DNA from: Phoronis australis
Lineage: Eukaryota; Animalia; Phoronida
DNA length: 64,000 nt
Direction: 5' to 3'
Assembly: GCA_002633005.1 (NCBI GenBank)
Contig: NMRA01000403.1
Coordinates: 186,603-250,602 of the forward strand
Part shown: positions 16,001-49,772 of the stretch, piece after piece
Layout of the letters: the number at the start of each line of letters is the position of its first letter
How positions within the stretch are numbered: the stretch's first letter is position 1
Program-made: the position numbers and the translations under genes
Notes under the pieces: generated by a model
What the model was told of the DNA's origin: nothing
The model's database searches: none
The model's input: the letters and a program-made list of their open reading frames with translations, nothing else

Positions 16001-16047
16001 ATTATAAGAAAAAAGTCTCATTTAAAAGAGATTTTGATGGAAATAAA

Positions 16048-18903: not shown

Positions 18904-18925
18904 GACAACAACAACAACAACAACA
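18904..18925. repeat. (CAA)n microsatellite
   Basis: gacaacaacaacaacaacaacaa. Confidence 0.8.
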
Positions 18926-19369: not shown

Positions 19370-19441
19370 GTAAGGATGATTCCATGCTGGTAGTGAATGT
19401 AGACTATGTGATTTCAAATCTGTTTTTGTTATTATTTTCAG

Positions 19442-19531
19442 GTTCGATCAGCTGCAGAAAATGGAAATTGTTCTGAACTTGTGAAATATATAAAACGTGG
19501 GTGGGATGTGGACCAAGAACTTAATCCGTAT
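19442..19531 (+). CDS. Ankyrin exon 1 (N-cap): VRSAAENGNCSELVKYIKRGWDVDQELNPY
   Basis: TTTTCAG acceptor, GTGAGT donor, 90 nt. Splices in frame to GTALH at 38814. Confidence 0.75.
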
Positions 19532-25500: not shown

Positions 25501-28500
25501 CGCAGTTGCCTGGAAGACTTTTACTATCAAATTGTAGCAGGTTTTTCAGATTTGCTCACNGCAGGCTAGGTTTTTGACAGAAGATTTGTAGAAAATCCCA
25601 GCAGTTAAGGACAAACGACGTGATCGTTGTTCACAGGTTCCGGATGAGCTGTTCTAAATAACATCGATCACGTAAACGCAGTTGCCTGGAAGACTTTTAC
25701 TATCAAATTGTAGCAGGTTTTTCAGATTGGCTCACAATTCTGTCTTCACGCCAACTTATCAGATTTTGCGTTACAATAAAGGAACGCCGAAAATTTTCGT
25801 ACCTTTCAGTCATTTGCCGTTAACATTCACAGGTGCCTATGGTTTTATACACTCTGTTCAACATTTCCCTAGATTTTGTTACAGGGTATTCATTTTTTCC
25901 AGGCGTAATATTTGCACAGTTGTCAATCCAAGCGTGGTTGATGGTGAAACGTATATTTTCCGGGATATAATTTTCACAAACAATTCCCCAAGTGGCAAAT
26001 GTTAAAAGTTACAGATTCAAAATATAACGAAATATGTTAACCAAATATGTCACCAAATGCGCGCACCAGGGGAGGCTCGGGGGGCTCGAGNATCTGAATG
26101 GTTGACCCCCCACCTTGCCGCTTTTTGGCTGTACAGTGGTCGGTGGATCCGTGGACTGATACTTAATTACCATTTTCTGAAAACGGCATTGATGATTATT
26201 GCTTATTACAAAAAATATGTAAGTAAATCAACTGGCATGCGTGCTTATAAATGATAGATGGCGCTGCTTTTGTTTACGTGGAGACTGAAGAGCATCTAGA
26301 ATAAGAGCAGTAACACGAGGACCTTGCTATAATTCAAGACTTCGCGAGATATTGTCCTGCATTTTAAATGAGAACATATGGTTTTGGATAAATTTAAGAG
26401 AGGTTCTAGTGTTACTGAACTCACCCCTGCCTTGTTTTCTATCTGCCTTATTCGTTCCACAGGTAAAGGAAGGCACCCAAGGTGGATATGACCCGCTAGT
26501 GTTCAGTGCAAAAAATCCTTCAACTTGTCAATAGTCATTGTAACTTTGGGATCATATTGTAATGTCCCTGCTGGTTACTACAAATTTTAGTCGCCACCAG
26601 TCGCCAGAAATCTGGTGTTCCCCCCACACACCGGGCACCTTAAGATGACGCTGAATATTTCTGCCAATGTGATCATCAGTGGTATAAAAAGGTACACATT
26701 CACAGTCAATAGAAAATAATTCACGAGAGACAATTTTATTAATGACTCATTCATGACAGACATGAAGTAAATAGAAGTAACGGTCTCGACTTCTTATATC
26801 ACACATCTTTCAGTGGTATGCTACAACACTAGGCTAAACGTTGAGCTCATTTACCACTTCATTCACTAAATCTGACGACATAACAGCATATTCAGCAGAA
26901 ATAGCATTGTCATAAACATTGCTGCAGACAACCTCGAAAAAAACCAACAATCTGCGATTCACTTAACATCACAGATAAACAATTTCACAGTGGGTTCTCG
27001 TAATGTTTTCTCCATTTTGGCACTTCAGAGGGTGAACGTTTTTACCTGACTTATCTCCTTCATCGAATATGTTCGTCAGAAATTTCTTAACCTTTGCTGA
27101 AAATCTTGTTGACCTTTTACCTTTTTTCAATGCCTAACCTATTGCTTCAGCATTCGTCACATCCAAACAGTACTCTGAGGCTGCCTCAAATGACGCTCCG
27201 GTTCTTGCATCTGAGAGCATTTCTGACCACTTTCGTGCGATGTGGTCATACGTGGTTTCCCTTTGTAAATGTTCAGTGTGGTTACCCACATCCAAATGCT
27301 GACCTAGTTCTGCGTCTGTAGCAAAAAATTTCGAGTAACCTTGCTGGGTACAAGGGAACTTTTGCTGAGGCTCTTCACTAGATACAATGCCAATCTTAAC
27401 TCCTGGTGTTGAAAATCCGCCATGTCTAGAGATGTTACTGTATTTGAGAGAAACATGCTTCCCATTTTCTCAGTATTTGTAAGAACTTACCGTCACCTAC
27501 ATGGAATGATTTCCACGCGCGAATTCCTTGGGTGGAATAGTGGGAATTTGGGAATGTGCTTATACCAGGAACTGAGTATTTTGGAAAACACTTTGTTGCA
27601 TTGACTGAGGATGCATACACATAACATCCCCTTCACACGGCCACTGGAAAGTAATTCTTCTTTCAAATCCAGAAAGTTTATGATATTGTTACCTTCGGCT
27701 TGAGTGGAGCGATCTTGCGATCACAGAGATCCTTTCCATTCTGACTTTCACTATCGAAACAGAAATGCCGGTAGTTGATAAGGCTCCTACGTTCAGGAGG
27801 AGAGGATCAGAGTGGTAACATCCAGCATTACCTGACTCTTCCATGACTGGTACTGTTCAATCAGAAATTCACCGACTCTGGGTAGTACGAGTCCGTACTC
27901 TGGCAGAGGCCTTGCTTTGTGAGTTAAATGTACTTCCCTGTATCTCAAATGTTCAGTGGTGTCTTTGACATAACTCACTAAAGCACAAAGTTTTTGTGAT
28001 CGGAATTTTTGCAGAATAAACTCTAAAGGAACATGGAGACCCATCGACATCGTCCGCCACTTTGTCTTCTCAAAATGCACTTGCTTCTCTCAAAACCAGT
28101 CATTACAAATATCAATTCTTACTCCATTTAAAAGTCCTGTAGAGTGTTTAAATTAACCCGATAATGTAAAAGAAATGAAAAAATACAAGAGGGTTACACG
28201 TACATTTTTATATATCCTCAAGCTTAAACTCAACTGACTCCCTCAGTGGGCAAAAGTCATTGGGTTCAGTTTTGATACTAGCCGCGTAATAAACCCGGAA
28301 AACATCTTGTTTTCATTTTAAAGAGTTTAAACTTGGTTTATAACTATTTAAAGCAGACTTCTTGTTTAAAAGAAAAAAAAGTTTATTCAAATGGTCTGTA
28401 AATTCTGCTCGTCATTTCCAAACTATGAAAATAGACAGTTTTGCAAGACAATTTTCACTAAAGTGCAAAGTTGAGGCAAGATTTTTTATTACTCAGACAT

Positions 28501-31500
28501 CAAGACTAACTCTTTAGCTGTATGTTCAAAACGTCACATAAGGCTACAAGGTGTTTTATGGCAGTAAGAAGGTCACAAAAATGGCCACTAAAATTAGCCC
28601 CAAAAAGTGGTCAGTGGATTATCTCCCCTGTCTAGCACAAAACTGTTATATTTTAATAAATGGCTCAAAATTATGCACAGTATACGTTGGTTATTTCAGC
28701 CACCAAAATATAGCTTTTGATCTATTTTGTATGTTACTCATTTCTGTTGTTGAAAGCATGCGATTTTTGAGACGGCTAATAATGTGCCAATTTGTGTTAT
28801 CATGCTCCAGCGGCGAAATTACGGGTCATTGAGTGCACAAAATTTGGCATTTGGGTTTTTGTTAGGATACCTACCCATGTACAAAAAATGAAGTTGTTTT
28901 AAATTTTGACGTATAGACTGATTTTTGAAAATCTACTGGTTTTTATATGGACTGCCTCTTAAATCGTATGTACTTATCAGACGATTTAAAACTTGCATTA
29001 AAGATGCGACACACTGTACAATTTTCAGTAAGTTGATTTGAACTGTTTTTGCGCACGGACTGGTCATTGTGGTTTACATGACATTTTATCATCTTCTATT
29101 ATGGTTAGATGTCTTTACCAGTGTTTTTGGGTAATAATTTTACCATCTAGACTCAATAAGAATAGGCCAGTGTAAAATTGAGGATTCTAGACTAACACTT
29201 TATCTCAACCTTGAAGTTTACATGTGTGTGCCTTTTACGAGTCCTGAGCCTAACCAAGATTCAGTTGTTGTTGGTTCTTGGGATGGTTTCGAGATTTGGA
29301 TAAAATTTGGCTCTATCGCTGACTCTGTCATGGGTGCTTTTGGAAGTCTGTAATTGATGTAGAGAATAAAAGGGAGACCAGGTTTCCGTACCCCTTCATA
29401 AACAAAACCTGGTTTAGAAAATACGTCATCTACAAGTTGTCGTGCTACCCGATTAGATAGATACATTTACATGCCATGTGGGAAGTGAAGAGTGTATGCA
29501 GAGTATGCAATATTCGATAAGAGACAACTTTGTACAAGAAGAGATCTTGTGAAACCTTGTCAAATGCGGATTCATTATCCAACATTAAACCCATTTTTTT
29601 CATATTGTTATCGTATCTCATGAACAACTTTAAACAGGAGAGATGTAGTACTCTTTTCACTCATAAAACCAAAGTAAAATTTGTTACTTATATTAAGTTA
29701 TTGAAAATGAGGTTCTTGTACATTTTATTCACTTTTAAAGAAAGACTGCAGTGATTCTGAATTCTTTTCTAATTGGGTACCATAATCGCAGTTTCAAATA
29801 GAAGGGTAGGCTCCTGTCAGTAGAATTTTGTTGAATAAATTAATGATCAGTAGAGGCATATCTTTATATTGGTGTAATTATTTATTTGTTATATAGTCGG
29901 AGCTTTCGAGACGTGGTACCCTGTTTTTTTAGTCCTTCGGCTTTTTTGTATGTAAAAGGTCCACATCCTCTGAAATCCGAGCCCCCCCCATATTAAAGGC
30001 TGGGTGCGTGCATGAAAAAGCTTGGAAGCAGTAGTCCAAGGAAGGCATGTATATTCTCCGATTTAACGTCCCGCCAAATAGACCTTTTGAATATCAGGGA
30101 GTAAATGCATTTTAACTCGATCGGCAACAACACCTGAAAAACATGCATTAAGCAAAAAGAAGAGTTTCCAATTCTTTAGCTTATAACGAGTGTTTTTCTT
30201 CTCAGGAATGAGCGTGTTTATACAGTATCTTGACCCTGTAATTGAGTGGGTCGTCTGTTTTAACTACAGGTGTAGTTAGCAGTTCTCTGTAACATAGGTA
30301 GCAATGGTTTTCAGAAAAAAAAAACATCCATTGGAAATCCATCTAACCAGGGAGGTTTTTCGTATTTCACAGTTTTTAAATCATCTGCTACGTCCTCCAT
30401 AGTAAATACCGGTCCAACTTTTTGCTAACTTCACGTAATTTTAGAACGACGGTTGCCGATGTCGGTGCTTTCTCACCTGTCACAAGCCCTTGTCTACAGT
30501 CAGGATTCTGGGTCGCGGTTATTAGAATCCTATTCCAGACCAGTACTTGTTCGACAGACAACTATAAATTGATAAGAAAATCACATAAAATTAATGAAGC
30601 TATAGCAAATTTCCACTGAACACCATGTAATAACCTCTAACAAATTTGTGTAAGGAACAACGAAATAAAGAGGAAGGAGGGGACATCAATACCGGGTGAA
30701 CACGAAATATAGTTGTATGGTAATATCAAAATACATGTAGGTTATTAGCAGAAGAATAAAGTTCCTGAGGGTGAATATCGGTTGTATAACCTTTTGCACA
30801 GAGAGCATTGGGAAAAAAGGCACTGAGAAGACCATGTAATAACCTCTAACAAATTTGTGTAAGGAACAAACGAAATAAAAAGGACAGAGGGGACATCAAT
30901 ACCAGGTGAACACGAAATACAGTTGGATTCTAATATCAAAATAGGTTATTGGCTGGAGAAAAAAGTTCCTGAGGGTGAATATCGGTTGTAAAACCTTTTG
31001 CACAGAGAGCATTGGGAAAAAAGGCACGGGGAACACCTTGAAATTAATAATTATGTAAACGGGTAACAAATGCTCTAAAAACCCATATTTGTATAAACCC
31101 GTTGAAACCATTTTTACCTAAATTAACCTTCTGTGCAAGACCTCTGTCTAGTCAAAGAATCCAAACCCTAATTTTTAAGTCGTTCCGTGAGTTGAAATGA
31201 CGACGCGTGCTCCGATTTAAAAAGCAGCGCTTTGCACGGCAGTTCTCACGTGCACACGTGTTAGCTACAGTGAAACACTTGTTTGAAGTATTTAAAGGGG
31301 CATTCATTAATCACGATGAAACGATTAGATTTCAGGTGTACAATTCCGATTTGACCTTGCGTATTTCGTCATGATGATTCCGACTGAAGCTGCTGATAAA
31401 TATTTATCTGACGTAGTATTAATACGTGCAGGCTAGGTTTTTGACAGAAGATTTGTAGAAAATCCCAGCAGTTAAGGACAAACGACGTGATCGTTGTTCA

Positions 31501-34500
31501 CAGGTTCCGGATGAGCTGTTCTAAATAACATCGATCACGTAAACGCAGTTGCCTGGAAGACTTTTACTATCAAATTGTAGCAGGTTTTTCAGATTGGCTC
31601 ACAATTCTGTCTTCACGCCAACTTATCAGATTTTGCGTTACAATAAAGGAACGCCGAAAATTTTCGTACCTTTCAGTCATTTGCCGGTAACATTCACAGG
31701 TGCCTATGGTTTTATACACTCTGTTCAACATTTCCACCAAATTTGTGCTAGATTTTGTTACAGGGTATTCATTTTTTCCAGGCGTAATATCTGCACAGTT
31801 GTCAATCCAAGCGTGGTTGATGGTGAAACGTATATTTTCCGGGATATAATTTTCACAAACAATTCCCCAAGTGGCAAATGTTAAAAGTTACAGATTCAAA
31901 ATATAACGAAATGTTAACCAAATATGTCACCAAATGCGCGTACCAGGGGAGGCTCGGGGGGCTCGAGCGAACCTATTTTTACAAAACGTGGTTGTCAAAA
32001 CGTTTCTACATTTTAGTGGCTTTGATTTTTTTCTTCGAGAAAACTTATCGTCAATAGCACAGTATTTCCGAGTACGGTATCAAAAATAAAAGAACCGTTT
32101 GCTTATCAACAGATTCTACTTGGACTTCCAATGTCATCTTTAATGTATTAATCAGATTATCACGAAGTCACAGAAAACAGTTATTAATGATTTTATACAC
32201 TCCACTTTCTTGCGAAACTAAGCGGAATCTTCGCTTAGTGTGACTGATGAAAATATAAATTAGAAAAAACTAATAATTGCGTTACACATATTCAAGATAC
32301 TCAAATGAAATGTTTTCAATGTAGACTGATTCACAAGTTCATTACAAGTGTTTACTCAAAATGGCGTAATCGATTGTGCTCTTTGTACTACAGTGTATTT
32401 GTACTGATTTCACGGAAACTGATGCACATATTTTTGGGTAGTTTCCCTGTTGTAAATGCGGTATGGGTTAGATTATTGCCGGCTAAAGCATATCTTCTAC
32501 GAGAATATTTCTTTAACAACTACACTGTAATGCAGCTCTGTTTGGTTCTTCGGAATCTTAGAAAGTATTAGAGTATAATGTTATTTTTGCTTAGCTACAC
32601 TTTCCTTATCTAAACATGAACTTAAAGGTAGTATTCCAGAGTTTTGAAAACACAAAATAGTATTATTGCATTTTATGTAGATTAATGTTAAACACATAAG
32701 ATATGTCAATAAACTTACGGGTATACAGTGTACTTGCAGCAATTACTTTTATTGCTTTAGTCGTTTTGTCACATTTTGTGATCAACTTTTCTTGATTAAA
32801 TACACATGCAGGTGTATATTTATGTGTATAGATACATGTACATGTAAATGTACCACGCCCATACACTGTGTATGCATGCATATGTGCTTCACAGTAAAGC
32901 AACAAAAATATACGGCTTCATATACTCGACTATAAAGTCAACGTCTAGTAGCCTGGGTTATTTGCTACATGTATGTGGTCTTAACAAAAAGCGTTGTTTT
33001 TGATTTGCGTTTATTTTTGTTGTATCACTTGTTCGGTATTGTTACGAAATGCCTTTATCCAAGCAATAGTTTATATCCTTAGACAATACTTAACATTGTG
33101 GTCATGGCACAAGCAAAAATAATAATAACTCGCCTTACCTCCACATTTTGGGACATTGTCAAAATCCCAGCTCGCTGTCACGAATTCCAGGTCGCAAAAA
33201 TTACCCGCAATTTTTATGCGCCAAATTGATTTTTAGGCCATCGACGGAGAAAATGTTTAGATAAAATGCTCTTACCTTCGGCGTTAAGTATTCTCAAATT
33301 TCAGGTTGCATAACTGAGTTCTTAATGTTTGATGTATCTGTTTTCCTCCGAAGTCGACCGCTTTTGATATGCCCTAGATGCGCTTGTTGCTTTGCAAATC
33401 AAATAATTCCCTGCCGCCTGACCTTCCTGTAAGGGTTTTCTATATCTACCGTACTATAGCACATCCTTTCGCGAGTTCAGAAAATTAGTTGCGAGCTTTG
33501 GTGCCTAAGTGAAAGTTGAGCCAGTGCTCTCTAACCGTTTCGAGTTACTAAATATGCATCGTAAACAATAGAAGAAAGTAATAGTTGAAAAGATACGCAC
33601 GACTCTTTTATTATTAATCTGCCATGTTACTGTAATCAAAGTCGTTAAAGAAGCAAAGATATATACATTATGCTTTTACTCTGAGTGCAATCTTCCTCCA
33701 TTTGTTTGTTCTTCAAATTTTACGACTCGACTGACTAAAAAACATGCTGTCGAAAAAAATCCGCAAAACGTTTTCCTAGCTGAATGACGTGTTGTGCATA
33801 CACCGCTATCGATTTGGGGGCAGAAATTAAGATGACATAAACAGTTATCAAACAAACGGCAGGTCATCACGAACAATTAAGAACGGAATGCTGTTTACGT
33901 TTTCGATTATAAGCTTTTCATTAAATAAAAAGCTTCAAATAATACCCATTCCGTGCGGGTTTCCATTATTGGGTAATTCGAGTTTGCTCCCTTAGCACGG
34001 ATACACTGTACACGTGCAGTGCTGTAGTGGTAAAATTAAAGGTAAGTACATGTAGGCGCCCAAAGCCCATCCTATCACCTTGAGCGCTGAACGTGTCTTA
34101 CGGTGGATANGCAAAAATAATAATAACTCGCCTTACCTCCACATTTTGGGACATTGTCAAAATCCCAGCTCGCTGTCATGAATTCCAGGTCGCAAAAATT
34201 ACCCGCAATTTTATGCGCCAAATTGATTTTTAGGCCATCGAGAAAATGTTTAGATAAAATGCTCTTACCTTCGGCGTTAAGTATTCCCAAATTTCAGGTT
34301 GCATGACTGAGTTCTTAATGTTTGATGTATCTGTTTTCCTCGACCGCTTTTGAAATGCCCTAGATGCGCATGTTGTTATGCAAATCAAATAATTCCCTGC
34401 CGGCTGACCTTCCCGTAAGGGTTTTCTATATCTACCGTACTATAGCACATCCTTTCGCGAGTTTAGAGAATTTGTTGCAAGCTTTGGTGCCTAAGTGAAA

Positions 34501-37500
34501 GTTGGGCCAGTGCTCTCTAACCGTTTCGAGTTACTAAATATGCATCGTAAACTAGAAGAAAGTAATAGTTGAAAAGATACGCACGACACTTTTATTATTG
34601 ATCTGCCATGTTACTGTAATCAAAGTCGTTAAAGAAGCAAAGATATATACAATATGCTTTTACTCTGAGTGCAATCTTCCTCCATTTGTTTGTTCTTCAA
34701 ATTTTACGACTCGACTGACTAAAAAACATGCTGTCGAAAAAAATCCGCAAAACGTTTTCCTAGCTGAATGACGTGTTGTGCATACACCGCTATCGATTTG
34801 GGGGCAGAAATTAAGATGACATAAACAGTTATCAAACAAACGGCAGGTCATCACGAACAATTAAGAACGGAATGCTGTTTAAGTTTTCGATTATAAGGTT
34901 TTCATTAAATAAAAAGCTTCAAATAATACCCATTCCGTGCGGGTTTCCATTATTGGGTAATTCGAGTTTGCTCCCTTAGCACGTATACACTGTACAGTAC
35001 GTGCTGTGCTGTAGTGGTAAAATTAAAGGTAAGTACATGTAGGCGCCCAAAGTCCATCGTATCACATTGAGCGCTGAACGTGTCTTACGGTGGATATAGG
35101 CGCTATGTTCAAATGCCAAAAGGTGGTTGGCTGCGCCGACGTGCGCCTACGGCCCACTACAGCACTGTGTAAGTGCCATATACATGTAAGTATGCTGACA
35201 ATAGATTAGCCTCAAAACAACACGTGACCCTAGCATGCATGTCGCTATGGCAAGGCCGTACCTTCTTAGGCACAAAATGAATCCGGGATTTTGCTTTTAA
35301 ACGTTCTTTTAGAAAATGAATTTGTTGTTACCGGTAAGTAAAATGAGAGTGGGACCCACTATAGACTGCGTAAGTGACAAATTCAAACCACGCGTACGCT
35401 AACAGGATACAATACAATGTCTCCTTCGATCACTGCACACATGATTATACCGTGCGACTCGAAACATCGCGATCCGGTTTCCGCATTTTGAATACATCTT
35501 GCAGTTTTGAAAACAAATTCCAGCGAGTGAAATTGTGGGTGGGGGCTTGCCAGAGCTGTTGGCGCTTTATTGAAGGCTGCCAAAAGTTAAGAGGGCGATT
35601 AGTAGAGCTGTTGGCGCTTGTTCCGAAAACTTCCAAAGGTAAGGAATACTGTACATGTACACTGTAGGCACAAACTTTAGTTTGGTCGTTGTTACGAATG
35701 ATCGCCGTTTAAAGAAGACGTTAAAAGCAAGTACCATGTTTCTGTGCTATGCAACCACCAAGGCGTCAATGTTTGGATATTCTTAACAACCACGGTACAT
35801 GTATTTTAGCCACCCGCAACATCTCTTCTAATTATCTTTAGCTGACGTTTCAATTGGAACAGTACTTTTTCCAAGCGAGTTTTAAAAATCAGTGACGTAG
35901 TCAATTGAAGACACTAGGAGTAAAAAATTTTCATATATTATTAATCGCTCACAATTTTACGTCTGCTTGTTCATACATGTTAGTAGCAATAGTTACATGT
36001 ACCAACTCAAAACTTGCCTGCTGAAAGAGAAGTCGTGTTCGTCGTTTGGCTATTGATAGATGTAGGGTTGAAATTTACACGCTTTGTGTGTTTTGCGATA
36101 AGAAAAACGAGACGCATGTTCAAACATTATGTTACTTTATTTTTCCGAATCATTATCCCCTGATGGGACCTCGACCGTGCACAAAAACAACAGGATCAAG
36201 CAGTGTCGCAATGCGATACTAAATTTATCTGAGATAATGTAATTGAATAATCAAGACATTTTACTTAAAAAATTAATTCATTTTTTTCACCACAAACTTT
36301 GGTAAGTTGATCGTTCCAGAATTTTTGTAAACGTCGCTCTTTTGTGACGTTTTATCATGTATTCTGCCATGGCCCAGAACTGGCTTCGGCGCAACAACAA
36401 AATTATGGTCGGACCCACATGAGTTGCTTCATAATTGCCTGGTATATGCTGAGAAGTGTACTACATATAAAATCTCAGTACGCTTATGTTGGAAATTCTA
36501 AGTTGCATACATGGACTTGATACGAGTGGCCAAAACCCGTGCTCTCATAAGAATTTTGGTCTGTACAGTACTACTATTGCAATATGCTAACGTGTCGAGA
36601 CTGAGTTCAATAATAGGTCTTAGTTAACGGGAACGACGTAACTCTGTTTTTAAAATACACTTTAGCAACATTCTTGTCATGGTTGTGCGGCCGTATTTTG
36701 ATGTTTCCTGGGCACTCGGTTGATGAAATTGGATGATGAGATTAATCATTTCGAGTGAATGTCACCCTACTGAAGATCTTGTCTTGGAATTACACTTGTC
36801 AAAAAGTAAGCGAAAGTGACATAGGCCTAATTTTGTTATTTAATCTTGATGCTCCGTTCAAAAGGTCACTAATAAATGTACACTGTACATGTATTGTGAA
36901 CTCAATATTTATTTTTCAAAACAATTAAAACGAACGCATTGACATTTGCTTGATTTCAATCCGGCGGCATTTTTATCGCTCTGTATCAGATTTTGAATTC
37001 TCTAGTGAAATGAAGTACAGTGTTGACGTGCAAATGCATGTCTAATTATTGATGTCCAGATGGTCTTCTATAATAGATGTACTGGTGTAGACGCGACGCA
37101 TTGTATTACTTGAGTGATTTTAAGAAACAATTAAATTTTAAAGATTTATTTAGATATTTTTCAAACAAGCACTAGTTTTACGGTGCAATATGTTGCTATA
37201 ATTACGCATCATTTCCCATATTTTGTACTTATGTTTTACGGTTCATGTTATAATTTTTGGTATGAGAGCTATTACTATATTATATTATTTCCCATATGTA
37301 CACATCAGTAAGTTTTTTTTACATATTTTGCCCATGTAGCCGTGTAGTCTAAGCGGCTTATGTTCAAGATGTTGAATTTTTTGGTAGTCCTTGTTTGCAT
37401 GCCATTAAAGCGGTCGTGATATTACCGTTTCATATGAAGCTCTTTGAGTCCACATATTTTTTACCTTTCTCTCTTTGAGAACCATCTCAAGGTAAATCAG

Positions 37501-40500
37501 CGATCATCTCAAAATTTTCTAGCACAACATAGAAAATTGTATCCTTGTCGAAACAGCATTTAGAACGTCTGTGCGTAGAAAGAGTCAAATTAATGTCAAA
37601 AACTCAAATTGCAACATCTTTTATTTCGTTAGTCACGTTCTCTTTAATTGATTTCTTGCGATAATGAAATGCCCCTTTAAATATATTCAAGAACTGACAA
37701 ATGTATCAATTTATCGCGTGTACACGCGAAAACTGTCTGGAAAAGCGCTCTTTTTAAAAGCAACGCTTCGCCTGGCCAGACCACTGCCACGTCGTCTGAA
37801 GAACAGTTGAACAAGTTGGGTTTGCGTCGAAATGGGAACCACAAGATTGATTGATTTTCTGAATAGCAATCTTGATAAGAAGATTGGTTTTGGTAAAATG
37901 TGTTTCTTCATGTGTTTAATTTGTAGAGCAGGGTTTATCATTTCCAGGATATTGTTCCTGCTAGCATTTTGTTCGAGACAAGTGGAATTGTGTTCCCAGT
38001 GCCCGTGTTCTTGGCTTGTAACAAACCCTATACCAAACATTGCCCAACTTATATTTTCTTAAACATCTTCAGACTTCAGTTGCGTTTTGATAGTACCCCG
38101 TGCCAATACCATATTCACCCTATATTGATGTTCTCTTATCCTTTTATTCCGATTGTTCCTAACTTTAATTTGTTAGAAATTATTTTGGATCTCAGGAAAA
38201 AGTGAAACCGTACTTCGTAAATTAGTTTGACTACATGTGCATGTATGTTTTTTCAATTCATGCGTCCAGAAGGAATTGTTTTGCGGTAGACCTAATTAAA
38301 AGAAACCAGACGACCACGAAAGTTTTACTCATATAATTTCAGCTTTCAAATAGAGTATATTTGATTTTTAAATGTCTATTACATCATATTTTGTGTCAAA
38401 ATTTTTCCAGCAAATTAAATTTCGTCCTGTTCATCTGTCTAAAAACGAAAAGTGAATTAAACCATTTGCTCTCATGAAATTGATTATTAAATATGAAGAT
38501 GATGGTCATATTGTCAATAACAATGATTGTTCTAGCTGCAACCAGTCGCCCATATTTTTAATGAACATGCTATGTCTTTGCTCTGAGGATTATTTCTGAC
38601 ACTAACAAACATACTACGAAAGCGATGTAAACTTGTTCTTTATAAATGATGATCTATTACAAGACAACTGATATATTGCATGATAAACAGAAAGTAGATT
38701 TAGTAATTGTGTGTACAATTGTCTTATTTCAACGTTTCCATGATGAGTAATTAAGATTCACGGTGAAGTTAATGATTCTGAAGTTTGCTATAACTTGTTC
38801 ATTGTTTCTGCAGGGCACAGCACTACACCGTGCAGCAGGGTGGGGACGTACAGAGGTGGCGCGTGTTTTGTGTAAAGCAGGCGCTAATATCAACAAGCAA
38901 AACGTGGTAATAGAAACTACTTGAGACGATTTTATAATTAAGACAGTGTTATCTTTGTTACAAAGCTGTAGACTAACTGAAGTTTAACTAAACATGTTGT
39001 GTGTAATAACACTTTTTATTTCTCATCATTTCGACATGTATTTTTCAATCTGTACCCGGTACATGCATCTTAAGAAACAGTGAGGTTTGAATTGTGTCAA
39101 CAATATATTTGGCGATTTAACCTTGATATTTTTCTATTCTTAATGGTAATCGTCCATTCAACATTACAACTTTATATTAAACAGGAAGCCGTTAAACCGG
39201 TGTATAAACACAACATGGAGGGGTCACTGTGAAGTTATGGCGGCGCTCAGTAATTTCTGACAGTCGACGTCTACACCATGTTCTGTTCTTACTTCAACAT
39301 TTTAAAATCACCTGTAAAACTTGAGTGTTGAAATCATTACAGGTATTGTAGCGTCTTAGAGGGGTCAGTAATGTTTCATTTATGTCACCTTTCAAGTTCA
39401 CTGATCCCCTGTGTATGTTAATTTGCTCTAAACGTTGATCGTCCATTCACACATCTCCATTATATATTACATAGATGATGGGCTGGACACCGCTGCACTT
39501 GGCAGCACTGTGTGGTCATACAGAGACAGTGAAGTGTCTTGTGGAACACAACGCTACAGTGGATGTCCGTACTCAGGTAATTAAGGACACACAGGTTGTT
39601 TGGTTGAACTAGTTGTTTACACAAGAGATGATTAAAACTGTTGAAGAACAAATTTTGTTGATATTTTCCCAATTTAATGTCCTTAAACAATGTTAAAATA
39701 AATGTCGTCTGCTTTCCGTTAGAGAACTGCCAAAGCTGCATCCGAACATTTCAGTTGATTCATTATTGCTGTTTTATTTACCGATATATATTCTACATTT
39801 CGTCAAACAATAGTTTCCTCCAGTCGATCTGGATCGCCTCATTTAGTTTAGGACTTATTTTCTACCTTATTTTGATTGTCCAACACTTTACAGCGCACAA
39901 TTACTTGCTGTGTGTTACCGTCCTGTAACGAGACAGGGAACACTGAACACGCTCTGTTGTTTTGTTCTTAAACTTAACATTTCCATGTTGAAATCATTAC
40001 AAGTATTGTAGCGTTTTAGAGGGGTCAGTAATGTTTCATTTATGTCACCTTACAAGTTCACTTTCCCCCGTGTATGTTAATTTGCTCTAAACGTTGATCG
40101 TCCATTCACACATCTCCATTATATATTACATAGGAGGGCCTGACACCGCTGCACTGTGCAGCACTGAATGGTCATACACAGACAGTGAAGTGTCTTGTGG
40201 AACACAACGCTACAGTGGATGAACGTGATAAGGTAATTAATGACACACAGGTTGTTTGGTTGAACTAGTTGTTTACACAAGAGATGATTAAAACTGTTGA
40301 GGAACAAATTTTGTTGATATTTTTTATAATCTAATGTCTCTCAACAATGTCAAATTAAATATCTTCTGCTTTCCATAGGAGGGCCACACACCGCTGCACC
40401 TGGCAGTACAGGAGGGTCATATAGCCGTCGTACAGTGTCTCATCGAACTCCGGGCCAACGTGAATGTTCGTAATGAGGTAATTATTGACACACAGGTTGA

Positions 40501-43500
40501 TGAACACAATACGTGACTAGGCTAATTATTGCGTGTTTTAATTAAATAATCGCAAATTGTGAAGTTCTGGAACAGAAAGGTATAAAACGTGACGTCCTCT
40601 TGACACACCCACTTCGCTATATTTAAGGATGACCGGCATTCTCTCATGTTTGTTCACTTTAGAATGGAGATACATGTACAGCATTACACCTGGCGTCGCA
40701 GAGTGGAAAGGCAGCGGTCGTAGAGCTGCTTGTCAATGAAGGCAGTTGTGAGGTGACTGCCGTAAACAAGGTATCTCTAGAGTGCTGCACTCCGAGCTTA
40801 GTAAATGTTCCAATAAACATGTTTTAAATGAATATTGAGTTCGAGGAATTGTTCATTCATAATAAATATCTCATCAAAAATGAACAACCTCTTTACGTGG
40901 AGTTATACAAAGAGTCACTTCTTCACTGCAAGTACCTTCCCTGAACACGCAGTGAAACCAGAGTCGCTGGTGTGATCGTACTATTGGCATACTAACTAAA
41001 AAACCAACCACACCATAAAGCGCCGAACACATACACAGATTTTAATTTTCTCACCTCATAAAGTTTATTCAGGTTTTTAATCACGTCAGTGCGCATTTAG
41101 GAACCCCACTTAAGTTTTTTTAGCCAAGATTGCTTTAAAAAGGGACTTTGAACAATCAGACTTCTAAGTCACATTGTCGCAAGTCCGTTCGGTGCAAACT
41201 TTTCGATAGGATAGTAACAGAGCACAGCACTGTACACTCATCTGGCCGGTGAGAGGATATTCCGCGAATAAAGTCGCTTGTGTTGCAGTTGCTAGTGGAA
41301 TATATAATACCCACACACAAAATGTGTGCTATGATCAGGATCAATCAAAATCGTTTCCTTTTGAGTAAAATAAATGCATGTCTAAATATTTCGTTTAAAT
41401 GTCTATTCCTATTATCAATTTCAATGAAAGTTTCGAATCTCATCCTCTATTAATTAATTAAAACCATTTGATAATAACCAAGTACTACAAGATGTGGATT
41501 TTTGTCTAAAAACGTTTTGTTGATGCTACGATGGTCAACACAAAAGTGACAAGACTAAATCGCGGTGTGTGGTATGGCGGATCTTGATCACGAAATAAAA
41601 AATACGTAAACATTTCAGTTTGAAAGCCATCAAACAGTTTGGTTCACCCCTCACAGTACCATCGTATTTCGGGTACCAGGACATAGTTCTCGGCGCAGCC
41701 CATCAAATGCTTTTTAGATTAAACGTTCTGGTCAAAACCTTCCGCAAGACGTGCGCTTTCATAGAAATGCAATTACGCAAAAATTAAATGAATGGACAAA
41801 AATATTCATATCTTCAGGAAGAATAAGAGACTGGCATTTCTTGAGATGGATTTCACATTACGACTGAGACTAAATCGAATCTTAATTATATTAAAAACTT
41901 TGTTCAAATTTCAACATTGTAGTGAGAAGAACGGTTTGGGGGTTTCAAGTTGTGAGACTTAGTTCTTGAACGTAACATTTTCGATGATGTGTGCACTGAG
42001 TGTATTGTGTGGAGAACGTGGAAGTTTTAAAACTCTTTCGGTAATAGCTTTTTGGGGGATGGTTTATTATTAAAATATTTATTCGCATTCCACTTTATTG
42101 TCTCAAATGTATGAACTAATAGAATGGCAACCCTTTTCGTATTGAGTCACTTACATCATTATTAAAGATGCTATATTACAGTATAATTCAATCACTTTCC
42201 TTTTCTGTGAGATTTGTCGGGTAGCATATAATTTTATCGATGGCCATGGTGCAACCTACTTTAATTCCTTCGGTGTGAGCATTATAGTATATGAAAAACA
42301 AAAAAATCACCAGAGGGCTGCAGGTTACTTGAATTTGCAATAAAACTCTCAGCGTGTCTTTATTTTGATCCCACTGCACGACTATGTATGTTAATGGCGT
42401 TGTTTGATTTATGTTCTCTGTAATGATGTAAACTTGCGAGCTCCATACGACGTCATTTGGCCTGGGTTGTTTGTAAAATGTATTTAAAAAATGTGCCACC
42501 GGTCGGGGTATAACCACCTGTCTCTGCCACGTGCACAATCTTTTTTCTTATAAACTGTGAATTTTAGGCCCCCACTTTCGGGTGTTAAAATCTCAATTTC
42601 CATTATCTTTTCCGTGCAAATTTTAAGTCATTCTTGAGCGCATATCTGGATAAATTGCCAAGGAGCTCCTTACTGAAAGATGCACAAAATTGTACAAATA
42701 AACATGTAGAGAACTGGAAATGTGTGTATGTTTTAATATTTGATTGCCGTTTATGAAGTAAAACTACATGTGAAGGGTTCGTTGCTCTATGATTTGCATG
42801 TTTATGCTTCCACGAAAATCGGCAATTCTCCGATTTACGAATAAAATCTGCCAATTCTTAAAGAAACATCTTCAGAACATTGAGCTTCTAGACCCCCAAG
42901 CAACAAGTTCCGTAGATTCCAAAACGTGTTACGTATTTTAGAATGTTGATGTTTTAGGACACTTTTACCAAGGAAATTTAATGAACCAAGGTGTAGAGCT
43001 GAGACAATAACAGTGGGGGTGTCAGTAAACTTTTTTTCATTGGTTTCCTTTTATAAATTCTGAATATTTGTCATGTAAGCCAGTGTGTCTGTGTTTCATG
43101 TATTTTTACCCTATATGCGCGTATTTAGGCCAATACGTAAAATGAAATATTATAAAGCCTACAAAACATGCAAGTATACAAAGGATATTATGCATGTGTT
43201 TGTGCGAAACATTTGAGTATGAAAATTTCCTTATGGCAGTTATTTCGGATATAGGTGTTAGTGCCTAAATAATGCGTAAAACACACAATGCTCTACACTG
43301 GGTTACACTTTTCGTTGTTTACTCAAAAAATTTCGTTTAGTGTTCTTCTTTAGAATTAAAGTGCATTAAAATGTGCCAAGTAAACAAATCTCTTACAGTG
43401 TATGCTCTAGTGGTCGAATAAATGTCAGTGGCATTCTGAATACGTGCTGTGCTTTTACTGAAACACAGACTGGTTAATGAAAGCTGTTTCCACTACTACA

Positions 43501-46500
43501 AAAGATTGAACGAATTCAGTTGACGCGATATAGGCTGAGCATCACCTGATTTGTGATTAAGGCATTTTAAGATGGAAATCAGTGCTTGTCCGATGTTTCT
43601 TACACGACGACAATCTCGAGACTGTCGTGAACACATCGGCCACGCGTTAACAGCTCATCATTTAGGCGAAGGTCAGTCGATGTCATGTTGAGTGTCACCA
43701 GATCGCCAACAGATAATTCTACGACTTAAGCTGCCGAAAACACTTTGCCTAATGGTGCTTCAGTTGCTGCGTGTTGACACCGATGGCACCGACTGCACTC
43801 CGGAAAATTTCCAGGCAACTGCCCGCCTTCCATCGACATAAATGCGAGCCACCTGATTGTTTTAAACGTGATAGTGTGTTGATACTACCCACCCAGAACA
43901 ATGATATCTTTGTTTCTGTTTCGCTTACTACAGTATTATACGTGTGTGTTAAGGATTTGTATGCCCTAATTTAGCAGTCTACCTATTTTGATAATGCTTA
44001 AAAACATGGATTGTAACAGAGTTGATGTTTGTAGTTTCTGAAACTAAACTACAAAATTTGATTTTTACCTCTCTACTACTCTGCCACTATTTGCATCACG
44101 TGACTTAACAGAAAGGAAATGTACATTGATAACAAAACAATATCAGATTTTATAACGTATAAATCTTTAAGATGATATCTCAAAACGTTACTGTTTCTAA
44201 TACACCTGTTCGTTTTTTTGTATAACTCGTGAAATCCCTGTTGACAGCCTCTCATGCAAAAATGCATTGTTTTAAAAACAGTTACGTACAGTGTGTTAGC
44301 AAACAGTGCATGAGAATAGTTTCCGATCAACCCTTTTGAGATAGGGTACTCCGAAGTTATCCAAATGTCCCTGGAACCCACACAACCTTAAAGAACAAGC
44401 GCCTCATACAAAGCTGCTGGTTACATATTTGAAACAGCTTGAGTGAAGTCAAGAAGCAAAATTTACAAATCAAGTGAACAAATAAGTAATATCGCTCTAT
44501 TCTGTAATACCCGGCAATAAAATGTCCTTGATATGTGACTGAAATAAATCATAGTTGTTTCATTTTGAACTTGGCGTAATTTTTGACAGTTTAAATATCA
44601 TTTCCACGAGCTGTTCATCAAACAATTGAAAATCGTGCAAATTTGTTTTTGGTTCATCAACACATTTCCATGCTTCTTGTAGGAAGGCAACACGCCGCTG
44701 CACAGCGCGTCTTCACGTGGCCGGCTAGCTGTTGTGGAACTGCTTCTGAAAACTGGTGTCGATGCGACGGTTGTTAATACGGTAAGATAAGAGTGTCAAT
44801 CAAATTGTGTGGTATGCTATCAGTATCTGCTTTCAATGGATAGGTAAGAGTGTTTGTAGTCATCATAACTCATTACAATTGTATATGTAAATATTATGTA
44901 TGTCCTGGTACACTGGAACAGCGTCCACCGTTGCTGATAAAGTCCTTTTCTACTTTTCTTTAAACTCCGAAGCGACTATCGACACGGAATTTTTAACAAA
45001 TTTAAACTATTCACTTGATGTAGTAGCCAGGTCGCTATGTGACTGCTTCAAATTTTGAAGAACCCGCAGCCCAATGAAGCCAGGAACTTACGTGAAGTAT
45101 TACCATTTCGTTCTCAACGTTGTATATTCGTCGTCTTTCCTGTTTAACACGCCAATCTACCAGCCTCGCATTGCTTATTTGGCGATAGGTGCAAGTATTC
45201 GGTTCATATTGGTACAGTTCACGTGCTTGATATTATAAAATTTTAGCACATGGTAGGAAGTAAATTTTACGTGCTTGTGTTACTCTTCAGTGTGAGCTTT
45301 AAAGGTAGTAAGTTGTGTCTTGCAGGTCGGACAAACAGCTTACGATGTCTGTGGCGACAATCGTGACATGTTTTTTAACAAAGTCGACGATGAGACTATC
45401 GAGAAAATAAAGAAAATTCTTGAGGTATGTAGTAGTGAAAAAAATCAGATTCTTGCTACAAAGACCATATTTTGTGATTAATGTCATTAACGCCATTTGC
45501 ACGATTGGGAGAAGTCGTGTGTTCGAACCCCGATCTGGACAGAGATATTTTCAGACTTAGCTATAGGTCACGTGGTGCGACCAACAGATGGCGTGTCAGA
45601 CGACTGATAATTCTCTCTTTTTTGTTGTATCAGTGTTATTTTGTTATAAATATACATCTCGCCTAGGCGGGTACAAGTAAGGTTTTCTCTCACTGCATTG
45701 GGGATCTTTGTATCATTTAAACAGCTCGGAACGTAATGTAGTAAATACTTGTGTCTAGAATCTGATATTTCTTTTACTTTATTTGACAAAAATCGTTGTT
45801 CACTGTAGAAGAATATGCGATTAAAGCAGCAAAGCGGAAAACCACCACCCTCAGATGAAAATGCGAACGGAAATCTCCTTCCTGTCAACGAGGAAGAGAG
45901 CGTACTATTAGCGTGGCTGGAGGGTTATCTGAAGTCGAAATATCGAGACATCCCTGACGGCGAATTGGACGTCAGCGTAAAAATAAAAACGAGAGAGAAC
46001 GGCACATTCCAACTGCTGAGTGTGGATACCAAGCTGATGGGTATTATATTGTGACTAAGTGTAAACTAAGATATATGTAAACACAGTCTTCATATAGACC
46101 GTTAAGTTCCATGTATAACGATATTTTTATTGAGACACCTCTGGAACTCAATACTTTAAGCTGTCATTAGCATGGCGAAAGTGCACGATGACAGCGCATT
46201 TCCAGAGGATTAAAACCGTTACTTGTCTTGCGTATTCAAAGACAAGAGGTGACTATGACTTCAGAATGGAAAGCATGCCGTTGTTATCAATGACAGTACA
46301 TGTATATTAAGAGCCAGGACTAGGAATTACATAGCCAGCTACATGTAGCTACATATACAGTACGTGATGGCTTCCTGTAAGCTAAAAAACTGGTCAAGAA
46401 ATTCAACTATATCAGTTTTGATTGCAATCATTAACTATGTAAAATTTCAAAATCTTTGTTAAGAACCAATAACTCATAATTACAAGGTGGTTAATGATAC

Positions 46501-48546
46501 AGAGTAGATCCTATTAATTTGTGTACAAAATTACATGTATGTGTGGCATGTCATCATTTTCTGGAACAACTCATTTTGTGCTCAACGTTATAGGTGGGAT
46601 GTTCTCTTATGTTCTCGTTTGCTACAAAAAACCCAAGTGACTACGTATTGATAGTTCTCCACCGAAATAAAATAAACAATAACCGATTATAGAGAGAGAA
46701 AGACGTTTTTGTGTGATTTTAAGGTAGTGAAATAGTCAAAATAGTTTATTTGAAAAATAAAATGAGCACCAACAACTGAAAACGGGTTGATCGACGAGTT
46801 TGACTGTGAGCCTGGAAGTGGTATTGCTCGCACTGGGGGAATTATGCACGGGAGTAGGATTTGTCCGAGAGTAGAGAAACATGTCCACCACACCGTAAAA
46901 TGTGGTTCATGAAGTCAAACTACGTTCGCTAGGGGGGAACAGCGTGCGCGTCCGAAAGATGTTGCTCGTTTGTAGATAATTCTAGGTCTGGCAAAACGAA
47001 ATAAATATTGAATCTATGAATTTAAGGGTCTGGTAACTGCTCATTTACGTTTGCAAGTTACGAAGTATACGGATGTTTCATTTCCTTTCCAGACTATTTC
47101 CCACTAGTTGTACCCGTAAGGCAGTCCTGTCTTTTGGGCAAGTTTCCTGAACAAGGTCAGAACGTGATATCGGCTGAGCTCCACGAGTCATTGGCCAATG
47201 CGCTGAAGTCGGTTGTTCTACTTGCACGTGCAGATGCACAAGGAGTGGGGTCCGGCTTCCGAGTAGGGCGCAATTATGTGATTACAAACTATCACGTGTA
47301 CCAATGCCTGAATGTCCCCAGTAAGTATTTTGTCTGTTGATTGAATGTATGAATCCGGGTTTTTGTAATTCGCCTAGGACACATGTATAATGGTTCCACT
47401 TTCCCTGCTGTAATCAAGGACCGGAATTTTAAGAGTTGGGTTAGATTTATAGGCCTATTTTCAGTTGTCCCCAGAGTTGCGCTGTGTATCGTCACTTGCC
47501 AATCTAATGCACTGTGATGACGACTAGTCTGNNNNNNNNNNNNNNNNNNNNNNNNNNNNNNNNNNNNNNNNNNNNNNNNNNNNNNNNNNNNNNNNNNNNN
47601 NNNNNNNNNNNNNNNNNNNNNNNNNNNNNNNNNNNNNNNNNNNNNNNNNNNNNNNNNNNNNNNNNNNNNNNNNNNNNNNNNNNNNNNNNNNNNNNNNNNN
47701 NNNNNNNNNNNNNNNNNNNNNNNNNNNNNNNNNNNNNNNNNNNNNNNNNNNNNNNNNNNNNNNNNNNNNNNNNNNNNNNNNNNNNNNNNNNNNNNNNNNN
47801 NNNNNNNNNNNNNNNNNNNNNNNNNNNNNNNNNNNNNNNNNNNNNNNNNNNNNNNNNNNNNNNNNNNNNNNNNNNNNNNNNNNNNNNNNNNNNNNNNNNN
47901 NNNNNNNNNNNNNNNNNNNNNNNNNNNNNNNNNNNNNNNNNNNNNNNNNNNNNNNNNNNNNNNNNNNNNNNNNNNNNNNNNNNNNNNNNNNNNNNNNNNN
48001 NNNNNNNNNNNNNNNNNNNNNNNNNNNNNNNNNNNNNNNNNNNNNNNNNNNNNNNNNNNNNNNNNNNNNNNNNNNNNNNNNNNNNNNNNNNNNNNNNNNN
48101 NNNNNNNNNNNNACTGTGCTTCTGCACCTCCCACTGAGGGCGCTGGCGTCGCTGTACTTTCCGTGGGCTCGCCGTCGTAAAAACCGTTTAATTTGTAATT
48201 TCAGGTTTCTGAGTTAAACCAATGGGCACAGCGGACATTTCCTGGCCGTGCCGTATTCCCACAAATCGACGACCCACGACGAGTTCTTTACCGAACAAGT
48301 CTACAGTTTGGCAAAGGCAGCTCAGGAAGTCCTGGTTTTGTACCCGATGACAAACATGAGGCGTGCGTCGCCGCGATACAGACACGTGGATTTCCGGATT
48401 TGCCAGATTTTCATTTCGTTCCCCAAGAGGTAGTCAAGGCTCGTTCTGTGGAGCAAGGGGTCAGGGTGGAGGCTGTCTATGACTTCCTCCACACCAACCA
48501 CCCTGCACTGTGTCAGGATATCTTTGGCAACAATAAGCCTAGTTAA
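19442..48546 (+). CDS. Spliced gene: ankyrin-repeat array + linker + FAM111-like trypsin-2 serine protease (5' end and catalytic-Asp exon unresolved)
   Basis: Exons 19442-19531, 38814-38906, 39475-39576, 40134-40232, 40379-40477, 40663-40770, 44683-44781, 45326-45424, 45809-46040 and 47093-47320 all have AG/GT borders and compatible phases. A terminal exon at 48205-48546 follows a gap. Confidence 0.8.
22217..22356. mobile_element. MITE with perfect 21-bp TIRs; relatives at ~20340-20462, ~26305-26428 and ~61120-61281
   Basis: CGTTCAGTAACGCTAGGACCT ... AGGTCCTAGCGTTACTGAACG. Related internal CACGTGTTCT..TTTAAAATACACGG cores and GTTA(C/T)TGAAC ends occur in the other copies. Confidence 0.75.
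23964..24202. mobile_element. hAT-like MITE (CA...TG ends, GCGCGCACCCAG inverted repeat); an inverted relative lies at ~22975-23135
   Basis: CAAGCGCGCACCCAG ... CTGGGTGCGCGCATG. No clear TSD. Confidence 0.55.
26092..28958 (-). mobile_element. Sola3 DNA transposon (decayed; one terminus present, the other lost at contig join n26091)
   Basis: Minus-strand translation gives SGNAGCYH, SESQNGKDLCDRKIAP, FPC..GY..F....L.QHLDVGNH, G*ALKK.K...RFS.KVK.FL..IFDEG..SG and LSESQI. The terminus GAGGCAG... abuts TTAA (28959-28962). Confidence 0.75.
28959..31968 (+). repeat. Second copy of 20714-21637 + 24102-26090 (allelic haplotype or segmental duplicate)
   Basis: Long high-identity alignment. This copy lacks ~2.5 kb and has an internal ~210-bp tandem duplication (~30617-31030). 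Confidence 0.85.
33113..35096 (+). repeat. ~1-kb direct duplication centred on single n at 34110 (likely overlapping haplotigs)
   Basis: 33113-34109 and 34111-35096 are near-identical, with identical ORFs at 33676 and 34660. Confidence 0.85.
35004..35168. mobile_element. Small MITE with CAGTGCTGTAGTGG-type TIRs
   Basis: C(A/T)GTGCTGTAGTGG ... CCACTACAGCACTG. Confidence 0.5.
38814..38906 (+). CDS. Ankyrin exon 2: GTALHRAAGWGRTEVARVLCKAGANINKQNV
   Basis: CTGCAG|...|GTAATA, 93 nt, ankyrin consensus. Confidence 0.9.
39475..39576 (+). CDS. Ankyrin exon 3: MMGWTPLHLAALCGHTETVKCLVEHNATVDVRTQ
   Basis: CATAG|...|GTAATT, 102 nt, TPLH motif. Confidence 0.9.
40134..40232 (+). CDS. Ankyrin exon 4: EGLTPLHCAALNGHTQTVKCLVEHNATVDERDK
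   Basis: CATAG|...|GTAATT, 99 nt. Recent duplicate of exon 3 together with its introns. Confidence 0.9.
40379..40477 (+). CDS. Ankyrin exon 5: EGHTPLHLAVQEGHIAVVQCLIELRANVNVRNE
   Basis: CATAG|...|GTAATT, 99 nt. Confidence 0.9.
40663..40770 (+). CDS. Ankyrin exon 6: NGDTCTALHLASQSGKAAVVELLVNEGSCEVTAVNK
   Basis: CTTTAG|...|GTATCT, 108 nt. Confidence 0.88.
44683..44781 (+). CDS. Ankyrin exon 7: EGNTPLHSASSRGRLAVVELLLKTGVDATVVNT
   Basis: TTGTAG|...|GTAAGA, 99 nt. Confidence 0.9.
45326..45424 (+). CDS. Ankyrin C-cap exon 8: VGQTAYDVCGDNRDMFFNKVDDETIEKIKKILE
   Basis: TTGCAG|...|GTATGT, 99 nt. GxTAxD is typical of a terminal ankyrin cap. Confidence 0.8.
45809..46040 (+). CDS. Linker exon 9 (KNMRLKQQSGKPP...DTKLM)
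   Basis: CTGTAG acceptor, open 77 codons, and a phase-1 donor compatible with the next exon. Confidence 0.7.
47093..47320 (+). CDS. Protease exon with catalytic His: ...ALKSVVLL...GVGSGFRVGRNYVITNYHV...
   Basis: TTCCAG|...|GTAAGT, phase 1-1. GSGF..TNxHV is the trypsin-2 (FAM111/HtrA/V8-like) His motif. Confidence 0.85.
47532..48112. other. Assembly gap inside the protease domain region
   Basis: Run of N. Confidence 1.
48205..48546 (+). CDS. Terminal protease exon with catalytic Ser: ...DDPRRVLYRTSLQFGKGSSGSPGF...AAIQTRGF...RSVEQGV...HPALCQDIFGNNKPS*
   Basis: TTTCAG acceptor, 113 open codons (absent from the ORF track). Aligns by eye to the FAM111A C-terminus (ITYDT.FFFGASGSP...AMHAAG...RSIIEFG...HKPWYEEVF). 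Confidence 0.85.
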   Translation, partial: VSELNQWAQRTFPGRAVFPQIDDPRRVLYRTSLQFGKGSSGSPGFVPDDKHEACVAAIQTRGFPDLPDFHFVPQEVVKARSVEQGVRVEAVYDFLHTNHPALCQDIFGNNKPS

Positions 48547-49652
48547 TTTGAGTCGACCATAGGGAGCTGTCAACCTAATCCTTATATATGTTAAGTTATT
48601 TTATTGCAATCAGGTTGTGTATTACCATGTTTATGTACAGTTTTAGGCGTGTATATCCAGTAAACAATTTAGTTTTTGTCATACCTCAGGGCCGAGAAGC
48701 GTGGTCCATGCCCCAGAACACTGCTTACAAATATCTGAATAAGTGTACATGTACATGTTGCTTACGTGAGTTTTACTGGCGGATTTAAAGTAAATGATCC
48801 TATAAGATGCCAGATGTGGTAAAACTAACTAGCGCGTTGATAAGTTTGAATGCCTAAGAACAAAACTTCAGACTGAAAAGACAAGATATGATTTCCTGAC
48901 ACATTCATGGAGCCCGTTCTATGACCCTGACTTAAGTTCATTTTTACTTAAAGAGTTCCCACCATGTATTTTCTTGGTTTTTGAGGTTTCAGTGAGCTAA
49001 TATGACATGAATACCATCAAGTGTAACTGAAGCACTTTTTGTTCTAAATAGTCGTAATTTTTCTATCTCTGAAGATAAACTATTTATTTCCAAGTTTCTC
49101 GCCAAATGATGTAATGGGTGGAATACGTTTGGTCACTTGAGAATCAGTTGCAATGGCAGAAAACAGCAGATCAGAAGACTACAGGGTGTAGGACGATTTT
49201 CAGCGAGAACTGGACAATTATTATGAAGACAGGGAAGTGATCGGATATGGGCGTCACACAAACAAACAATCAATTCGATTTTGCACTTAACGAACTTTCG
49301 AGGGGTTTTAGGTCGTAAGAACTCGGCCCACATGCGCGAGAAATGCTGAAGACAAATGTTAGCTACAAAAAACTGAACCAAGGGGTGATCAATATTCACA
49401 AAATAGACTCTTAACAATCACAAGGCTGCAGTAAACCTGGGTCACTAGTATTCACTATTGCTATGATGGAATGAGCACGGTCTATACAATGCATGCGCCA
49501 ACCCTACGTGTCGTAGCACTCGATATGGGCCGTGGTCGAGGGACTGGTATCACTCGCTCTATAATGGAAGCAGTTTGCTCGTTATTTATAAAATTTGAAA
49601 ATACACTTACAAGGTGGTGAATCGTTCGTCGTTTGATCGAAACACAATTGNG

Positions 49653-49772
<120 letters not shown>

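Follow-up and report, generated by a model that had tools for sequence, protein, structure and literature searches.

Among fungal NLRs, the highly internally conserved (HIC) ANK, WD and TPR repeats of Podospora are near-identical to one another, carry a few hypervariable codons and undergo concerted evolution; the ankyrins show repeat-number polymorphism and positive selection on inner helices and hairpin, with exchange between genes proposed (excerpts of PMC4986451 and PMC13449251). The Ectocarpus candidate receptors, ROCO-LRR and NB-ARC-TPR, are built with one repeat per exon, keep inactivated copies in their introns and turn over as gene families, with positive selection on the concave binding face and exon shuffling (excerpts of PMC3341825 and PMC11378527). 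On the engineering side, a published ankyrin library randomises exactly positions 2, 3, 5, 10, 13 and 14 of the repeat (PMC3308923, in excerpt). Trypsin-like peptidases act as effectors of bacterial conflict systems, expanded ankyrin families of marine animals have been proposed to sense invaders (PMC8195603, in excerpt), and FAM111A is a mammalian antiviral trypsin-like peptidase (PMC13245274, in excerpt).

The gene described here lies in a 64,000-nt stretch of Phoronis australis DNA (the window, meaning the whole stretch analysed) and consists of about eight ankyrin-type exons followed by a linker and a predicted trypsin-like protease; it is spliced and multi-copy. It works like the fungal and brown-algal systems but is a member of neither, with no NTPase and no Roc-COR seen. 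As in the fungal HIC ankyrins, hypervariable codons fall on the inner helix and hairpin, here measured as read diversity and not by a codon model. Set against what the excerpts say of fungal NLRs, this is an animal gene, each of its repeats occupies its own phase-0 exon and its homogenisation reaches the introns; no NACHT or NB-ARC is seen, nor any NTPase in the spliced model (19442 onward, from ankyrins through a 77-residue linker to protease), and the predicted effector is a C-terminal trypsin-like protease. The fungal HIC definition asks for more than 85% internal identity over at least 100 residues. In this copy, the two closest repeats (exons E1 and E2) share 76% protein identity and the others 17–48%; only these two of about eight are near-identical, unlike the fungal arrays as excerpted, and other copies may carry more modules.

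With the brown-algal receptors, again as their excerpts describe them, the gene shares one repeat per same-phase exon and a pseudo-exon within an intron. It differs in coupling ankyrin to protease, where those receptors couple LRR or TPR to Roc-COR or NB-ARC, and in having no inverted exon copies, none being found within the window. The layout of the library of PMC3308923 (cap, variable internal repeats, cap) recurs here with putative caps; unlike the DARPins of that excerpt, this is a natural, germline-encoded array, a putative binder fused to a predicted enzyme. We read the gene as a multi-copy, spliced ankyrin array that is variable mainly at six codons of the binding face, is joined to a predicted trypsin-like protease and likely serves as a recognise-and-cut defence protein, and put the probability of this reading at roughly 0.6.

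Layout of the ankyrin–protease gene

All exons lie on the forward strand. The model opens with a probable upstream exon at 19442–19531 (phase 0, GTGAGT donor), coding for a capping-type ankyrin-like repeat; the RNA loose-end consensus before 38816 matches 19508–19525 exactly, with 0.09 matches expected at three or fewer mismatches. A suspected frameshift at the junction of the 19.5 kb exon with 38814 was rejected, the GTGAGT donor after 19531 giving a frame without stops as far as the protease His exon (416 codons before the N gap). The ankyrin exons that follow are A0 (38814–38906; Pfam Ank 31.6 bits, RNA depth and loose-end consensus), E1 (39475–39576), E2 (40134–40232), E3 (40379–40477; 42.6 bits, RNA joins on entry and exit), E4 (40663–40770; Pfam Ank, RNA join to 44683), E5 (44683–44781; Pfam Ank, RNA joins) and E6 (45326–45424; 99 nt, RNA joins on both sides, no Pfam match), the last a probable C-capping repeat by virtue of its size and GQTAYD start. 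The linker exon of 77 residues (45809–46040) has RNA joins and no Pfam or family match. Six of the seven exons scanned between 38814 and 45424 pass Pfam Ank (PF00023) at 30–43 bits against a cut-off of 21.1, E1 and E2 with one repeat apiece, and all ankyrin exons are phase 0/0 with one repeat per exon. Sense-strand joins from 40477 into E4, 40770>44683, 44781>45326, 45424>45809 and 46040>47093 are confirmed in X5, X6 and X7, RNA runs that carry the same species label and come from a single study. Compared with the form most often expressed, A0 is shorter by one codon, and E4 is two codons longer than in most reads (6-nt deletion in 43 of 46 X7 reads). Searching for homologues with an ankyrin query returned four generic ankyrin proteins, at about 50% identity, among 11 candidates.

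The initial annotation recognised the ankyrin exons, which stand, but overlooked the predicted C-terminal trypsin-like protease effector. Its first exon (47093–47320), entered by the 46040>47093 join, contains the predicted catalytic His in ITNYHV at about 47281–47298. As an exon-fragment query it matches Pfam Trypsin_2 below the cut-off (E 0.078); four of seven HMMER (phmmer) matches are Trypsin_2 proteins, and the Atlas clusters that it matches are Trypsin_2/Trypsin. The other three HMMER matches, including the top match P0001, were rejected as repeat-driven artefacts. The probable last exon (48205–48546), assigned from sequence and its open frame, holds the predicted catalytic Ser motif GSSGSP (48316–48333) and the stop codon. 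All ten of its ten best family-bearing Atlas matches share a family or clan (Trypsin_2, S7, S46, C3, Trypsin); it has no match in Pfam, PDB or the word-based homologue search (0 among 133 candidates), and its single-sequence fold has a pLDDT of 42.7. The PDB matches obtained for the protease are weak and are to serine proteases (best E 0.048). Between the two exons lies an assembly gap, an N run at 47532–48112 that is the probable place of the catalytic-Asp exon, and the sequence of RNA continuing past 47320 was not found in the window. These weak but concordant matches predict a trypsin-like serine protease of the PA clan (Trypsin_2).

The TNYH and GSSGSP motifs recall Trypsin_2 (PA clan) effector peptidases, and the predicted protease is a plausible defence effector; a protease fused to a hypervariable ankyrin array was not found for Trypsin_2 effectors in the excerpts of PMC8195603 and PMC13245274. 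Homologue searches found no close relatives of the ankyrin–protease fusion, which, with exon-sized queries, is weak evidence. No signal peptide is seen in candidate first exons. The protease may resemble FAM111; searching PDB with either protease exon fragment gave no match to a FAM111 chain at E up to 10, in a set that presumably contains FAM111A. RNA depth in the protease exon bin (47093–47320) is 167 in X7 versus 12 in X5 and 10.5 in X6, about 14-fold at similar read numbers.

Several neighbouring features are recorded for the window. Tandem duplicates of 90–100% identity at 20714–31967, 33113–35096 and 49492–49951 adjoin single Ns at 25560, 26091, 34110 and 49651; they probably reflect high heterozygosity, with haplotypes left uncollapsed, and they inflate a 19-kb intron of the ankyrin gene. 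An LTR retrotransposon at 3578–11256, which from its motifs we take to be Gypsy-like, has gag with a zinc knuckle, protease, RT, RNase H and integrase in several frames, its gag part in two copies (3578–5241 and 6349–8004, 97%), and probable LTR-like repeats at 2853–3468 and 12347–12967. Downstream is a forward-strand kringle plus trypsin (S1) protease gene, with Pfam-matched kringle exons at 56998–57345 and 58191–58490 and a trypsin exon at 60831–61232. One kringle exon, used as a query, found matches in an insect and a nemertean at just 40–42%; the kringle and trypsin exons, the Gypsy-like element and the length of the introns point to animal DNA. A short stretch near 49690–49750 (region 49650–49760) resembles, by eye, a trypsin GDSGGP exon, and an imperfect inverted repeat of about 240 nt (58585–58823; 68%, blastn) is possibly a MITE remnant.

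Near-identical modules and six variable codons

E1 (102 nt, 34 codons, phase 0/0) and E2 (99 nt, 33 codons, phase 0), both with AG..GT ends, had been singled out by the initial annotation as recently duplicated exons diverging at binding-face codons under diversifying selection or targeted exchange. Its counts are largely borne out: the exons differ at eight codons (14 nt) plus a single codon indel, every change alters the amino acid (M/E, W/L, L/C, C/N, E/Q, V/E, T/D, Q/K), no codon differs only silently and two of 90 nt differ in the donor flank. The organisation in phase-0, one-repeat exons also holds, for both exons, by their splice ends and Pfam Ank matches. The acceptor flank, given as 65 identical nucleotides, in fact has one difference (64/65). 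That seven of the eight changes lie on the binding face is true under a broad definition of hairpin and helix 1; the six library-randomised positions hold five of the eight (P = 0.0013).

The changes are clustered, since 14 random substitutions fall in eight or fewer codons in only 5 × 10−4 of simulations. Non-synonymous divergence (13/75) exceeds that of the near flanks (3/155, P = 5 × 10−5) and of the duplicated block's intron sequence as a whole (18/289; P = 0.004), although such per-base tests overstate independence because six of the eight changed codons differ at two bases. Comparing dN with dS for this pair alone gives no significant difference (P = 0.09; Nd 13, Sd 1, 24 silent sites, by pathway averaging), and the lack of any silent-only codon carries a P of about 0.06–0.10. 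By itself, the E1/E2 pair does not prove selection.

A larger exon set is available in reads placed at 80% likeness on 40095–40270 (176 nt): 386 records from X5 and 1,066 from X7 (raw RNA reads), 192 from X1 (DNA contigs) and 50 from X8 (RNA contigs from a third study). The reads pool alleles and paralogues and are expression-weighted, so that the results are site counts and not a codon model; diversity was taken from the 40 listed of 63 variant rows, with further places at a frequency of at least 6% numbering about 4 in X1, 11 in X5, 14 in X7 and 7 in X8. Repeat positions follow a 33-residue ankyrin numbering that agrees with the E21/K25 numbering in the excerpt of PMC3308923. Variation is concentrated at exon codons 33, 1, 3, 8, 11 and 12, which are ankyrin positions 2 (40230–40232), 3 (40134–40136), 5 (40140–40142), 10 (40155–40157), 13 (40164–40166) and 14 (40167–40169). 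The six most diverse codons include 6 (X5), 5 (X7), 6 (X1) and 5 (X8) of this set; the chance of at least five in six is 1.5 × 10−4 per run, the runs not being independent. Mean diversity at codon positions 1 and 2 is 0.51 (X5), 0.47 (X7), 0.44 (X1) and 0.33 (X8) for the six codons, against 0.02–0.03 for the other 27 (P about 10−5 to 10−4), and up to four bases are seen at site 40167. Among the variant rows listed, diversity is 0.01–0.06 at 16 fourfold silent sites within this exon.

The six-position set was chosen after inspection of the reads. The classic DARPin set randomises positions 2, 3, 5, 13, 14 and 33; tested first, it likewise separates (P 10−5 to 3 × 10−4). Position 13 is hypervariable in the reads though unchanged between E1 and E2, and the V/E change that distinguishes these exons at position 32 is a minority form. 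The six variable positions are the same as those of the library excerpted in PMC3308923, and position 33 is nearly constant both there and in the reads. RNA editing was rejected as the source of the codon variation, the DNA contigs carrying the same letters as the RNA. With six diverse codons and near-invariant fourfold silent sites in all four runs, the read-based test upholds the proposal of diversifying selection, and we consider selection at the six contact codons to be highly probable. The first codons of E6 (45326–45328) and E3 (40379–40387) are variable in RNA too, with an alternative triplet in 92 X7 reads at the E5–E6 join and different letters at the start of E3-type exons, suggesting that hairpin positions vary beyond the E1/E2 type.

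E1 and E2 sit in a duplicated module of exon and intron flanks (copy 1, 39326–39717; copy 2, 39986–40374; 91% identity over 393 nt). The copies differ at 3 of 152 nt beside the exon and at 15 of 137 nt at the block edges (P = 0.002, with the inner/edge boundary picked post hoc). A gradient of identity centred on the exon is what ongoing homogenisation, rather than one recent duplication, would leave, making the label 'recently duplicated' probably wrong, and it fits gene conversion or unequal exchange that includes the silent sites of the exon. The initial annotation had named intron-restricted gene conversion as a finding that would undo its case. Conversion would account for the intron identity, but it is not intron-restricted, and it leaves the selection reading undamaged because the exon's silent sites are homogenised too and the six codons are not.

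Within the A0–E1 intron, a decayed acceptor flank and ankyrin exon (39110–39290), a pseudo-exon with a broken frame, aligns locally to E2 plus its acceptor with a score of 72.5, reached by none of 1,000 shuffles (maximum 50.5). Sequence after 39717 that looked like a decayed copy of E3 was discounted, since 71 in 1,000 shuffles scored equally high. Sense-strand RNA depth in this same intron (38907–39474) is 44–192 in the bin 38963–39369, about 8–12 times the mean of the E4–E5 intron bins; possible sources are intron retention, transcripts with an alternative 3′ end, or an exon that is live in other copies. The intron just before the acceptor (40095–40133) has a summed DNA contig depth of about 13,000–28,000, several times that of the exon, which suggests that far more modules carry this flank than carry the exon type.

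Copy number and competing explanations

RNA links exons of the E1/E2 type in tandem through several different junction sequences; the window has a single junction of this kind. DNA contig depth is 19–27 for linker-identical sequence, 94–178 for the upstream and protease stretches and about 417 per contig for an exon flank variant (1,669 over four contigs); with the caveat that contig depth is no copy number, 417 against 19–27 would correspond to roughly 15–20 haplotype copies, and the depths suggest few gene copies with some tens of exon modules. Loose ends in both RNA and DNA reveal a sister exon that shares the 5′ half but not the 3′ half, and loose ends also join the variable exon type to exons absent from the window. 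RNA joins from an E1-like exon to E3, and DNA joins in which one module is missing, could be cross-mapping between copies.

This modularity bears on the best-surviving alternative, in which selection is real but is driven by self/non-self, gamete or symbiont recognition, with the protease incidental or regulatory. The variable exon is about 13-fold (X5) and 3-fold (X7) deeper in RNA than the protease exon, so that other genes may use the modules too, and the joins to exons outside the window mean that many modules may have other C-termini. The best-studied fungal precedents, moreover, work in allorecognition (PMC13449251, in excerpt). We nevertheless hold this unlikely: splicing puts the window's copy in frame with the predicted protease, and a repeat sensor with a peptidase is a recurring counter-invader design (PMC8195603, in excerpt).

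A second alternative dispenses with positive selection and invokes ordinary ankyrin constraint, which fixes the framework and tolerates change at the surface, combined with local hot spots of mutation or patchy gene conversion. The identity gradient does indicate conversion, six of eight changed codons show two-base differences, and ankyrin surface positions are tolerant in general. Relaxed constraint, however, would cap variation at the silent rate, and diversity at the six codons is 5 to 40 times that of fourfold silent sites interspersed among them (such as codons 2, 4–6, 9, 10 and 13). Even if the four further X1 places were all silent at 50%, silent diversity would be about 0.14 versus 0.44, and we judge the explanation improbable.

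The six codons might instead be diversified somatically, or by targeted mutagenesis or conversion in which a pool of exons and pseudo-exons serves as donor. Very high diversity at few codons, conserved flanks as possible homology arms and the decayed copy nearby would suit such a process, but DNA contigs with exon variants have depths of 19.5–87, those of single- or few-copy sequence, which favours fixed germline copies over somatic change, and neither a donor cassette array nor an enzyme is seen within the window; the odds are long against it. Equally poor are the prospects of an assembly or mapping artefact (two haplotypes set in tandem, or collapsed introns), for although several tandem duplicates of 91–100% lie beside single Ns and the pairing of flank with exon could be chimeric, there is no N between 34110 and 47532, RNA joins two exons of the E1/E2 type, the codon pattern is present in raw reads independently of assembly, and the 80% filter leaves room for silent differences, most reads being 90–95% alike.

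A putative recognise-and-cut protein

The reading of a variable ankyrin array fused to a protease implies a mechanism in two halves. The near-identical flanks would allow gene conversion or unequal exchange to recur, homogenising the module and altering how many repeats there are and in what order; selection, either diversifying or balancing, would retain old, multi-base differences at the contact codons; this half is well supported by the sequence pattern. For the other half, we infer that the array may bind a fast-changing foreign target, that binding would bring the protease to the bound protein or switch it on, and that this protein, or a downstream host factor, would then be cleaved. Defence is the probable function, architecture and precedent together pointing to a role that may be called immune. 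More tentatively, and as the less likely extension, the locus may be part of a germline 'DARPin library' of tens of interchangeable one-exon cassettes, randomised by selection at the engineers' six positions and swapped and re-ordered via their intron-flank handles within and between genes, that would re-target the protease and other effectors to new foreign proteins.

The evolutionary pattern is already known from fungi and brown algae; its ankyrin-exon-plus-protease form in an animal is apparently undescribed, no account of an animal gene that couples an array of ankyrin exons to a trypsin-like protease being found in a literature search that took in few subscription journals. Natural selection here probably converges on positions picked by protein engineers, and the natural residue preferences, together with the ankyrin–protease fusion, provide a design template. 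How invertebrates without antibodies achieve diverse recognition is an open question, for which this gene family is a compact and testable case: the contact codons are defined and number six, each module is the size of an exon, and the read-out would be enzymatic, so that swapping exons ought to change the substrates should the array direct the protease. Were the germline cassette library to prove true, it would constitute a naturally programmable protease for invertebrate immunity.
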